IMG/VR virus record: IMGVR_UViG_2563366838_000009
From: a virus
Taxonomy: Duplodnaviria > Heunggongvirae > Uroviricota > Caudoviricetes
DNA length: 5,724 nt
Strand: one strand, 5' to 3'
A model generated the notes under the pieces. The model saw only the letters and a program-made list of their open reading frames with translations. It did not search any database and was not told where the DNA came from. A program made the translations under genes and the position numbers. Positions 1 to 5,724 of the stretch are shown in pieces (the stretch's first letter is position 1; every line of letters starts with the position of its first letter).

Positions 1-176
1 TGGAACTGGCCACACTCACGTGGGTGGACTGGTATAACAATCGACGATTGCTGGAAAGGCTGGGCCATACTCCTCCGGCAGAAGCAGAAAAAGCTTATTA
101 TGCTTCCATCGGAAACGATGATCTGGCAGCCTGAGTTCACAGATAAAACACTCTCCAGGAAACCCGGGGCGGTTCA
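1..176 (+). mobile_element. Right end of an IS3-family insertion sequence (IS629/IS3411-like terminal inverted repeat ending ...CCCGGGGCGGTTCA at 176), truncated at the window start
   Basis: Frame-3 translation of 3-134 gives a transposase-like C-terminus. The last ~45 bp (131-176) is the reverse complement of TGAACCGCCCCGGGTTTCCTGGAGAGTGTTTTATCTGTGAAC, which I recall as the IS629/IS3411/IS1203-type terminal inverted repeat (IS3 family ends are typically TG...CA). The ybhJ reading frame has stops at 35-37 and 119-121, so ybhJ cannot be continuous through this segment. Exact IS identity and exact end are from memory, not a search. Confidence 0.6.
3..134 (+). CDS. IS3-family DDE (rve-type) transposase OrfB, C-terminal 43 codons (5'-partial, runs off window start)
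   Basis: Frame 3 translates as [43 protein letters not shown], with the W-x-YN-x-R-x-LG-x-PP-x-E pattern typical of the C-terminal tail of IS3-family integrase-core transposases; TGA stop at 132-134 lies about 40 bp before the inferred IS end, as in IS3-family elements. Confidence 0.65.
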
Positions 177-1306
177 CACAGCCGGTGTTTATGGATCTCG
201 CCAAAAAAGGTGTGGTAGCAGATTTGATTGGCGCAGGCGCAATCATCAGAACCGCGTTCTGCGGCCCATGCTTTGGCGCAGGCGCAATCATCAGAACCGC
301 GTTCTGCGGCCCATGCTTTGGCGCGGGCGATACGCCAATCAACAACGGTTTGAGTATTCGCCACACCACGCGTAACTTCCCGAACCGCGAAGGCTCTAAG
401 CCAGCTAATGGGCAGATGTCAGCGGTGGCGTTGATGGACGCTCGTTCTATCGCTGCGACTGCGGCAAACGGTGGCTATTTAACCTCTGCCAGCGAACTTG
501 ATTGCTGGGACAACGTGCCGGAGTACGCCTTCGATGTAACGCCGTATAAAAACCGTGTTTATCAGGGCTTTGTGAAAGGGGCAACTCAGCAACCGCTGAT
601 TTACGGGCCGAACATTAAAGACTGGCCGGAATTGGGTGCGCTGACTGACAATATCGTCCTGAAAGTGTGCTCGAAGATCCTCGACGAAGTGACCACCACC
701 GACGAACTGATTCCTTCCGGTGAAACCTCTTCTTATCGTTCAAATCCGATTGGTCTGGCGGAGTTTACCCTGTCTCGCCGCGATCCCGGTTATGTTAGCA
801 GAAGTAAAGCGACTGCTGAGCTGGAAAATCAGCGTCTGGCGGGGAATGTCAGCGAGCTGACAGAGGTGTTTGCGCGCATTAAGCAGATTGCTGGTCAGGA
901 GCATATTGATCCGCTGCAAACTGAAATTGGCAGCATGGTCTATGCGGTGAAACCAGGCGATGGTTCTGCGCGTGAACAGGCGGCGAGCTGCCAGCGTGTG
1001 ATTGGCGGTCTGGCGAATATTGCCGAGGAGTACGCGACTAAACGCTATCGTTCTAACGTCATCAACTGGGGGATGTTACCGCTGCAAATGGCGGAAGTAC
1101 CAACCTTTGAAGTGGGGGATTACATTTACATCCCTGGCATTAAAGCGGCGCTGGATAATCCGGGTACGACGTTTAAAGGTTATGTGATCCATGAAGATGC
1201 GCCGGTAACGGAAATTACGCTCTATATGGAAAGTCTGACTGCTGAAGAGCGCGAGATTATCAAGGCGGGTAGTTTGATTAACTTCAATAAAAACCGTCAG
1301 ATGTAA
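177..1306 (+). pseudogene. ybhJ: ybhJ (aconitase-family putative hydratase), 3' portion; gene interrupted upstream by the IS insertion and carrying an in-frame 45-bp tandem duplication
   Basis: The reading frame is open from 122 to the TAA at 1304-1306. Translation contains aconitase-family signatures ([10 protein letters not shown] Fe-S ligand motif, then [14 protein letters not shown] corresponding to the aconitase SYNRNFxGR region). Position next to ybhC and att-lambda matches the E. coli gal-bio region. The GTG at 185 used by the ORF track is not a real start; the frame simply continues from the IS junction. Confidence 0.75.
231..320 (+). repeat. Perfect 45-bp direct tandem duplication (231-275 = 276-320) inside ybhJ, in frame, duplicating codons for [15 protein letters not shown]
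   Basis: Both copies read GCGCAGGCGCAATCATCAGAACCGCGTTCTGCGGCCCATGCTTTG with 45/45 identity; the repeat is flanked by the near-identical microhomology GGCGCAGGCG / GGCGCGGGCG. Confidence 0.95.
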
Positions 1307-1319
1307 AAAGCGCCATGTG

Positions 1320-1525
<206 letters not shown>

Positions 1526-2862: not shown

Positions 2863-2961
2863 GAAGCCTGCTTTTTTATACTAAGTTGGCATTATAAAAA
2901 AGCATTGCTTATCAATTTGTTGCAACGAACAGGTCACTATCAGTCAAAATAAAATCATTAT
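2863..2961. other. attL: attL (B-O-P') junction of a lambda-type prophage; core GCTTTTTTATACTAA at 2870-2884
   Basis: Host B arm (...TTGAAGCCTG) joined to the 15-bp lambda core and then the phage P' arm (GTTGGCATTATAAAAAAGCATTGCTTATCAATTTGTTGCAACGAACAGGTCACTATCAGTCAAAATAAAATCATTATTTGATTTC), followed directly by the 3' end of int; this matches the lambda attP P' arm as I remember it. Confidence 0.9.
2909..2961. promoter_or_regulatory. P' arm protein-binding sites: IHF H' site (ATCAATTTGTTG, 2911-2922) and Int arm-type sites P'1 (2930-2940), P'2 (2941-2950), P'3 (2951-2961)
   Basis: IHF consensus WATCAANNNNTTR is matched at 2911-2922; three tandem arm-type repeats CAGGTCACTAT / CAGTCAAAAT / AAAATCATTAT match the Int arm-site consensus (C/A)AGTCACTAT; P'3 overlaps the int stop codon. 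Confidence 0.75.
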
Positions 2962-4028
2962 TTGATTTCAATTTTGTCCCACTCCCTGCCTCTGTCATCA
3001 CGATACTGTGATGCCATGGTGTCCGACTTATGCCCGAGAAGATGTTGAGCAAACTTATCGCTTATCTGCTTCTCATAGAGTCTTGCAGACAAACTGCGCA
3101 ACTCGTGAAAGGTAGGCGGATCCCCTTCGAAGGAAAGACCTGATGCTTTTCGTGCGCGCATAAAATACCTTGATACTGTGCCGGATGAAAGCGGTTCGCG
3201 ACGAGTAGATGCAATTATGGTTTCTCCGCCAAGAATCTCTTTGCATTTATCAAGTGTTTCCTTCATTGATATTCCGAGAGCATCAACATGCAATGCTGTT
3301 GGGATGGCAATTTTTACGCCTGTTTTGCTTTGCTCGACATAAAGATATCCATCTACGATATCAGACCACTTCATTTCGCATAAATCACCAACTCGTTGCC
3401 CGGTAACAACAGCCAGTTCCATTGCAAGTCTGAGCCAACATGGTGATGATTCTGCTGCTTGATAAATTTTCAGGTATTCGTCAGCCGTAAGTCTTGATCT
3501 CCTTACCTCTGATTTTGCTGCGCGAGTGGCAGCGACAGGGTTTGTTGTTATATGGCCTTCAGCTATTGCCTCTCGGAATGCATCGCTCAGTGTTGATCTG
3601 ATTAACTTGGCTGACGCCGCCTTGCCCTCGTCTATGTATCCATTGAGCATTGCCGCAATTTCTTTTGTGGTGATGTCTTCAAGTGGAGCATCAGGCAGAC
3701 CCCTCCTTATTGCTTTAATTTTGCTCATGTAATTTATGAGTGTCTTCTGCTTGATTCCTCTGCTGGCCAGGATTTTTTCGTAGCGATCAAGCCATGAATG
3801 TAACGTAACGGAATTATCACTGTTGATTCTCGCTGTCAGAGGCTTGTGTTTGTGTCCTGAAAATAACTCAATGTTGGCCTGTATAGCTTCAGTGATTGCG
3901 ATTCGCCTGTCTCGGCCTAATCCAAACTCTTTACCCGTCCTTGGGTCCCTGTAGCAGTAATATCCATTGTTTCTTATATAAAGGTTAGGGGGTAAATCCC
4001 GGCGCTCATGACTTCGCCTTCTTCCCAT
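2958..4028 (-). CDS. int: Lambda-type integrase Int (tyrosine recombinase), 356 aa
   Basis: 356-aa ORF beginning MGRRRSHERRDLPPNLYIRNNGYYCYRDPRTGKEFGLGRD (arm-binding N-domain) with the catalytic tyrosine-recombinase residues in HELRSL, HLLGH and the Tyr in MASQYRDD. Stop codon 81 bp from the core centre, and a GGATCC (BamHI) site at 3118-3123, both as in lambda int. Confidence 0.95.
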   Translation of the reverse strand: MGRRRSHERRDLPPNLYIRNNGYYCYRDPRTGKEFGLGRDRRIAITEAIQANIELFSGHKHKPLTARINSDNSVTLHSWLDRYEKILASRGIKQKTLINYMSKIKAIRRGLPDAPLEDITTKEIAAMLNGYIDEGKAASAKLIRSTLSDAFREAIAEGHITTNPVAATRAAKSEVRRSRLTADEYLKIYQAAESSPCWLRLAMELAVVTGQRVGDLCEMKWSDIVDGYLYVEQSKTGVKIAIPTALHVDALGISMKETLDKCKEILGGETIIASTRREPLSSGTVSRYFMRARKASGLSFEGDPPTFHELRSLSARLYEKQISDKFAQHLLGHKSDTMASQYRDDRGREWDKIEIK

Positions 4029-4224
4029 TTCTGATCCTCTTCAAAAGGCTACCTGTTACTGGTCGATTTAAGTCAACCTTTACCGCTGATTCGTGGAACA
4101 GATATTCTCTTCCATCCTTAACCGGAGGAGGGAATATCCTGCATTCGCGCACCCATCGACGAATTGTTTCAAGGCTTCTTGGGCGTCGCTGGCGAGCGTT
4201 CCACTCCTGAAGTGTCAAGTACAT
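4006..4224 (-). CDS. xis: Excisionase Xis, 72 aa, 3' end overlapping the int start by 23 bp
   Basis: 72-aa ORF MYLTLQEWNARQRRPRSLETIRRWVRECRIFPPPVKDGREYLFHESAVKVDLNRPVTGSLLKRIRNGKKAKS, matching lambda Xis as I remember it; the int-xis overlap is the lambda arrangement. Confidence 0.9.
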   Translation of the reverse strand: MYLTLQEWNARQRRPRSLETIRRWVRECRIFPPPVKDGREYLFHESAVKVDLNRPVTGSLLKRIRNGKKAKS

Positions 4225-4250
4225 CGCAAAGTCTCCGCAATTACACGCAA
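4215..4250 (-). promoter_or_regulatory. pI promoter region with cII-binding motif TTGC-N6-TTGC (minus strand, 4250-4237) overlapping the xis start
   Basis: Plus strand 4237-4250 reads GCAATTACACGCAA, i.e. TTGCGTGTAATTGC on the minus strand, the direct-repeat tetramer motif recognised by lambda CII at -35. It lies 13-26 bp upstream of the xis ATG, so initiation would fall at or just inside xis, as described for pI. Confidence 0.7.
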
Positions 4251-4251
4251 G

Positions 4252-4271
4252 AAAAAACCGCCATCAGGCGG
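4252..4271 (-). terminator. Rho-independent terminator on the minus strand (GC stem CCGCC/GGCGG, loop ATCA, then T6)
   Basis: Plus strand AAAAAACCGCCATCAGGCGG: on the minus strand the hairpin (4258-4271) is followed by TTTTTT (4252-4257). The stop codon of the upstream 55-aa ORF (4264-4266) lies in the loop. Confidence 0.7.
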
Positions 4272-4431
4272 CTTGGTGTTCTTTCAGTTCTTCAATTCGA
4301 ATATTGGTTACGTCTGCATGTGCTATCTGCGCCCACAGCATCCAGTGGTTATAGCAGTCGCTGATGTTCTCGGCTTCGATAACTCTGTTGAATGGTTCTC
4401 CATTCCATTCACCTGTAACTCGGAAGTGCAT
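4264..4431 (-). CDS. Small hypothetical protein, 55 aa (MHFRVTGEWNGEPFNRVIEAENISDCYNHWMLWAQIAHADVTNIRIEELKEHQAA)
   Basis: ATG-initiated ORF below the 60-aa cutoff of the supplied track, found by manual translation. It fits exactly between the tandem terminators (4441-4500) and the terminator at 4252-4271, and has a protein-like composition. The ribosome-binding site is weak. I recall an unnamed ORF of about this size at this position in lambda but cannot verify that here. Confidence 0.45.
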   Translation of the reverse strand: MHFRVTGEWNGEPFNRVIEAENISDCYNHWMLWAQIAHADVTNIRIEELKEHQAA

Positions 4432-4440
4432 TTATCATCG

Positions 4441-4469
4441 CCATAAAACAAAACTCGCCGTAGCGAGTT
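4441..4469 (-). terminator. Intrinsic terminator on the minus strand (stem AACTCGC/GCGAGTT, loop CGTA, followed by TTGTTTTAT)
   Basis: 7-bp perfect stem at 4452-4458 / 4463-4469 with a U-rich tract on the minus strand from 4441-4451. Confidence 0.6.
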
Positions 4470-4500
4470 CAGATAAAAGAAAACCCGCACTCGGCGGGTT
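4470..4500 (-). terminator. Second intrinsic terminator in tandem on the minus strand (stem AACCCGC/GCGGGTT, 5-nt loop, followed by TTTCTTTTAT)
   Basis: 7-bp perfect stem at 4482-4488 / 4494-4500 with a U-rich tract on the minus strand from 4470-4481, immediately downstream of the stop at 4521-4523. Confidence 0.6.
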
Positions 4501-4520
4501 CGCATTCGTTCAAATTGCGT

Positions 4521-4802
4521 TTACTTCTTGGCGTTCTGTTCATCCATATCGATATACCATGGGTTGCTTCCCTTGGGCATGTTTAACGACTGCTCGCGAT
4601 AGTATCTGATGCGCTCCATGAAATACTCGCGTGAGTGCTCAGGTTGCTCTCATGATACCTGCTCAGTGATAACAGGTATGTTAAGGCGCTCTCTGTACTC
4701 CATGCCTGATGCTGCAAGGTCAACGTTTACCTTGTTCTGTTTTTCTTTCGATTTCTCGGCGATGTTATGCCTGACATTGTCAACCCGCCTCCTTCTGAAC
4801 AT
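4521..4802 (-). pseudogene. ea8.5-position reading frame (282 bp, ATG at 4802, TAA at 4521-4523) interrupted by an in-frame TGA at 4650-4652
   Basis: Manual translation gives MFRRRRVDNVRHNIAEKSKEKQNKVNVDLAASGMEYRERLNIPVITEQVS-stop-EQPEHSREYFMERIRYYREQSLNMPKGSNPWYIDMDEQNAKK. The 282-bp span and its position relative to xis match my recollection of the lambda ea8.5 annotation. The TGA breaks it into 50-aa and 42-codon segments. Whether this frame is truly expressed in any phage is uncertain: weak RBS, and three consecutive rare Arg codons AGA AGG AGG. Confidence 0.4.
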
Positions 4803-5064
4803 AACGGTTATAAATCAGTCCCTGAGGGCCATAAGGAAGCGGGATGTGCAACTCCTCTGGTTCAGAAACTATCCATTCCCCGGCCATCTCCGCTGGAGAG
4901 GTAATGATAAGTTGTTTGCTAATAAAAGGACCACTCCTCTCAACAACAAGCTTACCATCTTCATTAATAAAAGCTTGGATGTCAGGTGTGCTTCCACACT
5001 TGGTGATGCAGCGTTTGAACATTTTGTGTCCCCCCATTTTATGGACGGGGTAATTATAACACAT
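4780..5064 (-). CDS. Hypothetical small Cys/His-containing protein, 94 aa from the first ATG; more likely 80 aa starting at ATG 5022, which has a GGGGGA Shine-Dalgarno
   Basis: ORF with protein-like composition; the internal ATG at 5020-5022 is preceded by GGGGGACACAAA (SD with 6-nt spacer). N-terminal region has H-x4-H-x5-C-x3-C (HKMGGHKMFKRCITKC), a possible small metal-binding site. The overlapping plus-strand 152-aa ORF translates to low-complexity sequence and is rejected. Confidence 0.5.
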   Translation of the reverse strand: MCYNYPVHKMGGHKMFKRCITKCGSTPDIQAFINEDGKLVVERSGPFISKQLIITSPAEMAGEWIVSEPEELHIPLPYGPQGLIYNRYVQKEAG

Positions 5065-5148
5065 TGAAATATAGTAATATTTGACGTAGATTTCTTTTGA
5101 TCTATAAGCGATTTTTTAATGCTTTTAAGTTATAAATACTTGTTTTCA

Positions 5149-5724
5149 TCACCCATCTTGCTGCGGTGCTACTATTGAAAAGTACTCACACCCTTTAGCC
5201 CAAATAGTTTTGATAGTTGTCCAACTGACTGGAACCTTGATTTCGATTCTTCCGCTGCCGTCACAAGTTTCGCAATCATCATCACCAAAGCATTCCGGGC
5301 AGCTTATAAACGTAGTTTCTGAAAATTCACCGGATAGCACACCCTTAGCGCCGTTCTCAGCGGTTAGTTTCTTCGGCACTATAACCCAACCATCCGGAGT
5401 TACCGGAGAATTGCCATTTATATCGAAGTTTGGCTCTGCGTCCTGAACCAGGAGGATGTAACCATTCTTGGCAGTATCAAGTTCTAACGCCTCGGTGACG
5501 GTACCGAAATAGCGATTACCTAAATCCGCATCACAAGTGCTTACATCAATGGAAACCTCCATGCCTTCGATTAATTCTGGCAAGTTGTAAGTTTGGCTTA
5601 CAGGTTCTGCTCCCAGTGATGCCAGTGCAATTCGTGCCAGTTCCATTTGTTCGCCACGAGTAAGCCCGTTTTCAAGCGGATTTTTAATGAACAATTCAAT
5701 ACGTTCTTTGGTAATAGTGGTCAT
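5149..5724 (-). CDS. Hypothetical prophage early-left protein, at least 191 aa, with a C-terminal CPECFGDDDCETCDGSG cysteine cluster (CxxC-x5-CxxCxGxG); 5' end may lie beyond the window
   Basis: Long minus-strand ORF ending at TGA 5149-5151. An ATG sits exactly at the window edge (5722-5724), so the true start cannot be confirmed. The second half-motif CETCDGSG matches the DnaJ-type CxxCxGxG zinc-finger signature. It occupies the position where lambda carries ea22, but length and frame do not match my recollection of lambda ea22. Confidence 0.65.
   Translation of the reverse strand: MTTITKERIELFIKNPLENGLTRGEQMELARIALASLGAEPVSQTYNLPELIEGMEVSIDVSTCDADLGNRYFGTVTEALELDTAKNGYILLVQDAEPNFDINGNSPVTPDGWVIVPKKLTAENGAKGVLSGEFSETTFISCPECFGDDDCETCDGSGRIEIKVPVSWTTIKTIWAKGCEYFSIVAPQQDG

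Follow-up and report, generated by a model that had tools for sequence, protein, structure and literature searches.

Short direct repeats (microhomology) give rise to tandem duplications in Escherichia coli by slippage or unequal exchange, the classic type being that of the lacI hotspot. A second common source of gene change is the IS3-family element IS629, which frequently pseudogenises genes by insertion in E. coli O157 and Shigella. Here we analysed a 5,724-nt stretch of DNA (hereafter the window), which is the whole contig KB731867.1 of assembly GCA_000326925.1 (E. coli KTE120) and in which both kinds of event meet in the aconitase-family gene ybhJ. The papers found on ybhJ include one describing the ybhD/ybhHI/ybhJ cluster and none on this duplication or on enzyme function.

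The 45-bp duplication of the window is an ordinary case of this well-known mutational class. It shares with the classic type the head-to-tail arrangement of the copies, a unit length equal to the spacing of pre-existing near-identical short repeats, a hybrid junction, an ancestral single copy in near-identical relatives and an apparent recurrence at the same site. Mechanistically there is no difference; particular to this locus are repeats of 12 bp with one mismatch and an in-frame unit of 45 bp. The IS629 insertion in turn differs from known cases in its site alone, between ybhJ codons 393 and 394.

The ybhJ locus of E. coli KTE120

The features of the window are collected in Table 1. Gene callers render the 3′ fragment of ybhJ as a 371-amino-acid open reading frame starting at the ATG at position 191, and the source name given to its product is 'hypothetical protein WII_00875 [Escherichia coli KTE120]'. 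A promoter scan upstream of this fragment revealed no sigma-70-like site. Between positions 273 and 2884 the window is identical to K-12 strain ER1709. The att core at the end of this segment serves as a context marker and is also present in single-copy sister strains.

Table 1. Coordinates of sequence features in the window (DR, direct repeat).
Feature	Position	Strand	Basis
IS629 (IS3 family) right end: 3′ end of orfB (stop codon 132–134) and right terminal inverted repeat ending CCCGGGGCGGTTCA at 176	1–176	+	100% identity to features annotated 'IS3 family transposase'
Right copy of the 3-bp target-site duplication CAC (ybhJ nt 1178–1180, between codons 393 and 394)	177–179	+	Junctions in scaffold L003
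ybhJ 3′ fragment: K-12 codons 394–753, stop codon and 15 duplicated codons	177–1306	+	Pfam Aconitase and Aconitase_C matches
DR1, direct repeat TTGGCGCAGGCG	228–239	+	Present in the ancestral allele
Copy 1 of the 45-bp unit (register of the preliminary description); CGPC codons 260–271	231–275	+	
Novel junction repeat TTGGCGCAGGCG, hybrid of DR2 (5′ TTGGCGC) and DR1 (3′ AGGCG)	273–284	+	Alignment with the single-copy K-12 allele
Copy 2 of the 45-bp unit; CGPC codons 305–316	276–320	+	
DR2, direct repeat TTGGCGCGGGCG	318–329	+	Present in the ancestral allele
REP-type intergenic repeats	1330–1524		
ybhC, intact	1540–2823	−	
Lambda-type att core GCTTTTTTATACTAA of attL	2870–2884	+	K-12 identity stops at 2885
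Lambdoid prophage int	2958–4028	−	
Lambdoid prophage xis	4006–4224	−	

The spacer between ybhJ and ybhC holds two REP/BIME-like units of approximately 93–100 bp (1330–1432 and 1423–1524) that are 92% identical to each other, and the K-12 spacer has the same two units. An Rfam match to naRNA4 (RF02564) at 1401–1471 lies barely over the gathering score (60.7 versus 59.5 bits). Scaffold L003, a 1.35-Mb scaffold from a second assembly, has one REP unit fewer, the remaining one being a hybrid; besides one base, this is its sole difference from the window.

The lambdoid prophage (window 2866–5724; L003 12675–21116) sits at the classical lambda attB beside ybhC, and a lambda-like P′ arm follows the attL core. 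Its int and xis are approximately 98.5% identical to those of lambda, the best overall match is phage HK629, and exo/bet/gam/kil-type genes and a cI-like repressor lie farther into the prophage. A similar prophage occupies the same site in strain N1454 and in several single-copy sister strains.

A 45-bp in-frame tandem duplication framed by 12-bp repeats

String comparison of the two head-to-tail copies revealed 45/45 identity between positions 231–275 and 276–320, each copy reading GCGCAGGCGCAATCATCAGAACCGCGTTCTGCGGCCCATGCTTTG. An adjacent match of this length has a chance of 4^-45, which rules out a chance origin. Tandem Repeats Finder (TRF) reported one array in the entire window, at 228–329, with a period of 45, 2.3 copies, 98% matches, no indels and a score of 197. 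The only mismatch of the array (A280 versus G325) falls in the third, partial copy, that is, in the flanking 12-bp repeat. Read together with its flanking bases, the array, only 102 bp in all, is GATTTGA TTGGCGCAGGCG CAATCATCAGAACCGCGTTCTGCGGCCCATGCT TTGGCGCAGGCG CAATCATCAGAACCGCGTTCTGCGGCCCATGCT TTGGCGCGGGCG ATACG. The copies are framed by three 12-bp direct repeats, two of one sequence and one of another that matches it at 11 of 12 positions. A background count of near-identical 12-mers in the window was set aside, as the REP tandem inflates it.

The duplication is in frame with ybhJ (45 = 15 × 3) and lies within the plus-strand open reading frame 185/191–1306, in which it doubles a 15-residue peptide. 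String comparison, TRF and the reading frame therefore agree, and the perfect 45-bp in-frame tandem duplication at 231–320 that the preliminary description had reported is real. That description had also given flanking microhomology of 9–10 bp; microhomology is indeed present, and its actual length is 12 bp, with 11 of 12 positions identical.

Agreement among assemblies

The preliminary description had raised a possible assembly artefact, in which a single genomic copy was expanded by the assembler. In favour of this explanation, the window is a draft contig of just 5.7 kb with a repeated IS at its boundary. The physical support for the duplication is agreement among assemblies: IS629 together with the duplication occurs in three of them, namely the window contig, the second NCBI assembly (L003) and an ENA contig (L004; ERZ27278331), the last of which has two copies and is 100% identical to the window over 5,687 bp. 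Because the two NCBI assemblies (GCA_000326925.1 and GCA_000408145.1) may be one strain (KTE120) assembled twice, the independent observations of the duplication in this lineage may number only one or two. The same two-copy sequence in L003 and the ENA contig speaks against an artefact, as does the identical duplication in the complete genome of N1454 and in a separate third-party (TPA) assembly of the N1454 lineage. In addition, the 102-bp array is shorter than typical reads and than k = 141; the contig name of L004 is of the MEGAHIT-style k141 form, suggesting that this assembly used k-mers longer than the array. The usual assembler error with tandem repeats is collapse, not expansion. With three concordant assemblies here and two of the N1454 lineage, we consider an artefact very unlikely.

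Copy number of the unit across strains

The claim that the duplication is recent called for a comparison with reference alleles. In K-12 ER1709, ybhJ has a single copy of the unit. For a wider census we used a junction-specific 47-mer (window 253–299) built to share no 28-bp seed word with single-copy genomes. Among 5,426 complete E. coli genomes, one (strain N1454) matched and 5,425 were without the junction. On this comparison of alleles the two-copy state is derived, because K-12 and 5,425 of the 5,426 complete genomes have one copy, and the claim of a recent duplication stands. The duplication junction had no match in JGI metagenome contigs and none in the GTDB species representatives, which comprise one genome per species and thus speak only to the representatives of related species. 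The reciprocal 45-bp deletion allele, searched for by its G-variant junction only, was absent from the 5,426 genomes.

A phase-variable or contingency repeat was considered and rejected: no copy number other than one or two was seen, the 45-bp unit keeps the reading frame and two copies occur in one of 5,426 genomes.

In three further complete genomes (Z0117EC0005, E500002 and AST85), a 60-bp query for the junction aligned in two pieces over 46 bp with 100% identity. This pattern suggests that in these alleles the downstream repeat may also carry A, which would make the two 12-bp repeats perfect. If so, these alleles would be better substrates for slippage.

IS629 insertion and the order of events

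Scaffold L003 spans the whole locus, in the order ybhH, ybhI, a 402-amino-acid 5′ fragment of ybhJ, the IS, the duplicated 3′ fragment, ybhC and int. At its left junction CGTCATCAC is followed directly by TGAACCGCC, and at its right junction GGCGGTTCA by CACAGCCGG; the uninterrupted K-12 site is a single CGTCATCACAGCCGG. The junction sequences CGTCATCACTGAACCGCCCC and GGGGCGGTTCACACAGCCGG can be used to search assemblies for the IS629/ybhJ boundaries. The window holds only the last 176 bp of the element and L003 has an N gap within it, and the complete IS629 was read in the sister loci L010, L008 and L013. In L010 it measures 1,310 bp and ends in perfect terminal repeats of 14 bp; from end to end it shares 99.5% identity with elements annotated 'IS3 family IS629'. 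As in known IS629 pseudogenisations, the full-length element has orfA/orfB, terminal inverted repeats (TGAACCGCCCCGGG), a 3-bp target duplication and 99.5–100% identity to annotated copies. The event is a simple IS629 insertion that splits ybhJ between codons 393 and 394, duplicates CAC and lies 54 bp upstream of copy 1. The junctions, the length of the element and its identity to annotated copies bear out the earlier suggestion that ybhJ is decaying in this strain. None of the 5,426 complete E. coli genomes has the IS/ybhJ junction.

The copy of IS629 in the L010 ybhJ is also 100% identical over 1,310 bp to the copy in the phage 21 integrase record AF017626.1, and 99.5% identical to IS629 copies of Stx phages.

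Three sister loci, L010 (E. coli H730), L013 (an ENA contig) and L008, have both IS629 junctions and the same lambdoid prophage and are single-copy. Over 284 + 4,034 bp they differ from the window by 0 (L010), 0 (L013) and 1 base (L008). Because these near-identical IS629-bearing sisters are single-copy, the duplication arose in an already dead gene; the parsimonious order is IS629 first, then the 45-bp duplication in a sub-branch in which ybhJ was already a pseudogene.

Alternatively, the duplication could be older than IS629, and the single-copy sisters could be revertants produced by recombination between the 45-bp repeats. Tandem duplications are unstable, their collapse restores the exact ancestral sequence, and the 0–1 SNPs of the sisters in 4.3 kb are too few to root the lineage. 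Protein counts are difficult to reconcile with this alternative. The 402-amino-acid 5′ product, which runs from codon 393 into IS629 and is a marker diagnostic of this insertion, occurs in 135 contigs of a collection of approximately 15 billion proteins, against 2–3 contigs with the duplicated 371-amino-acid 3′ product; the reverse order would therefore need many independent losses. An exact-sequence look-up in the same collection found no K-12-type full-length YbhJ with the duplication. A duplication that came first and was then lost in most IS-bearing strains is less parsimonious, and we regard it as very improbable. The 356-amino-acid single-copy fragment was discarded as a marker of the IS lineage, as it is also produced by frameshifts and other IS elements.

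The duplication in strain N1454

In the single matching complete genome, N1454, ybhJ is intact apart from the duplication, whose sequence and junction are identical to those in the window; the gene measures 2,307 nt, compared with 2,262 nt for the K-12 gene. Its allele encodes a 768-amino-acid protein with two tandem CxxC motifs. The TPA assembly GCA_021371495.1 is 100% identical to N1454 over 6,060 bp. Relative to the window, N1454 has 11 SNPs in the 3′ part of ybhJ, the nearest of which flank the duplication at position 203 (28 bp upstream) and position 607 (287 bp downstream), and the single-copy version of the N1454 protein allele occurs in at least 1,000 contigs. Because two rare derived events thus sit on two common backgrounds, the N1454 duplication is most likely an independent recurrence at the same direct repeats, a short-repeat slippage site.

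The independence of the N1454 event rests on these flanking SNPs, and a conversion tract of less than approximately 400 bp could have transferred the allele. A single origin would thus mean that the duplication moved between N1454-type and KTE120-type backgrounds by a short tract of homologous recombination. In favour of this, the two lineages agree at the junction down to the last base, the A of the hybrid repeat included, and a similar lambdoid prophage lies beside ybhC in both. However, the flanking lineage-specific SNPs force the tract below that length, and slippage allows only two junction outcomes, so identical junctions would arise by chance at least about half the time. We consider a single origin unlikely and favour recurrence.

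The aconitase-family ligand motif of YbhJ

In aconitase, Cys358, Cys421 and Cys424 ligate the [4Fe-4S] cluster. Intact K-12 YbhJ (753 amino acids) matches PF00330 (Aconitase, E = 4.4e-88) and PF00694 (Aconitase_C, E = 2.8e-6), and the fragment in the window matches the same two families (Aconitase, E = 3.4e-10; Aconitase_C, E = 1.2e-6). In a phmmer alignment to pig mitochondrial aconitase (5acn), YbhJ GIIAGCSGGNYE aligned to GLIGSCTNSSYE, which contains Cys358, and the CGPC segment of YbhJ aligned to NACGPCIGQWD, which contains Cys421 and Cys424; in K-12 numbering the YbhJ cysteines aligned to these three are C360, C421 and C424. YbhJ GCSGGNYE and CGPCFG thus resemble SCTNSSYE and CGPCIG of the pig mitochondrial enzyme (PDB 5acn/7acn), and the alignment to Cys421 and Cys424 supports the reading of CGPC as an aconitase-family Fe-S ligand motif. 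In contrast to aconitase, YbhJ is an uncharacterised 'hydratase' without known substrate, and its cluster ligands are predicted. The window differs further in having the 3′ fragment only: Cys360 is encoded upstream of IS629, beyond the element, and what is kept is the CxxC pair, in doubled form.

The two-CGPC protein foreseen in the preliminary description is encoded, but only in the unrelated N1454 lineage; in the KTE120 lineage it is not made, since the IS629 split preceded the duplication. Could the second CxxC nevertheless have been favoured as a functional change that alters Fe-S cluster binding or activity? The insertion is in frame and doubles exactly the ligand loop, and two backgrounds carry it, all of which speaks for such selection. 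Yet in the KTE120 lineage ybhJ had been split by IS629 beforehand, leaving no protein for selection, the duplication occurs in one of 5,426 complete genomes, and frameshifts or other IS elements have often inactivated ybhJ in E. coli and Shigella, suggesting weak constraint. The probability of a selected functional change is, in our judgement, very low. A stronger proposal for N1454 has two parts, that the Gly-Ala-Gly 12-bp repeats are a recurrent hotspot and that the 768-amino-acid YbhJ is a folded, functional protein with altered Fe-S ligation rather than a broken enzyme; that both would hold is highly unlikely.

Several other states of ybhJ were seen. A full-length variant, MEF5652923.1, has CGLC in place of CGPC (P423L) and keeps both cysteines. 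In WP_137556801.1 (769 amino acids, 4 contigs), an in-frame YbhI-YbhJ fusion, the first approximately 280 residues come from the transporter YbhI (MNKKSLWKLIL) and YbhJ follows from approximately residue 265 (LHGRGQDYCQLNPQ), which implies a deletion across the 3′ end of ybhI and the 5′ end of ybhJ. Broken genes include three loci with frameshifts (L006, L012 and L014), one with other IS3-family copies (L015) and one in an engineered strain, where ybhJ contains IS1 plus GFP/TetR (L009); many ybhJ fragments from Shigella sonnei, flexneri and dysenteriae are annotated 'hydratase, partial'. Taken across E. coli and Shigella, the alleles show many independent kinds of disruption and suggest that ybhJ is dispensable and commonly pseudogenised.

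Discussion

The two-copy allele of KTE120 is very probably a recent, neutral tandem duplication, mediated by short direct repeats, within a previously inactivated gene. In the ancestral K-12 allele, TTGGCGCAGGCG and TTGGCGCGGGCG stand 45 bp apart from start to start, and both encode Gly-Ala-Gly. With ancestral repeats exactly one unit apart and a new junction that is a hybrid of both, the signature of slippage or unequal crossover proposed in the preliminary description is well founded. From the sequences compared, we infer the molecular mechanism (slippage or unequal exchange) and the neutrality of the event as follows. The two ancestral repeats bracket the loop with the CxxC Fe-S ligands. 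Mispairing would join the downstream repeat of one strand or sister chromatid to the upstream repeat of the other, and replication slippage or unequal sister-chromatid exchange would then yield a second, identical 45-bp copy. The exchange point would lie within the 7-bp TTGGCGC common to both repeats, because the middle repeat carries A, as DR1 does, after TTGGCGC.

In the KTE120 lineage, the 1,310-bp IS629 inserted first and cut the CxxC pair off from Cys360, which stayed in the 5′ fragment. The duplication then landed in a promoter-less 3′ pseudogene fragment, where it changes no functional protein; in this lineage it was most likely neutral. An identical event occurred, most likely separately, in the intact ybhJ of the N1454 lineage.

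Slippage assisted by a hairpin was also considered, as the unit contains CAGAAC-CGC-GTTCTG, and was rejected: the DNA fold of 228–284 is no stabler than that of shuffled sequences (z = 0.43).

The biological weight of the duplication is very small, as it lies in a gene fragment that IS629 had disabled and has no consequence in this strain. It is a clean worked example, in which sisters at a distance of 0–1 bases give the order of events, IS then duplication, and KTE120-like strains could be traced with it as a lineage marker. Its occurrence on a second haplotype points to a small site in ybhJ that is prone to slippage. The locus adds to the evidence that E. coli and Shigella can do without this aconitase-family gene and often lose it.
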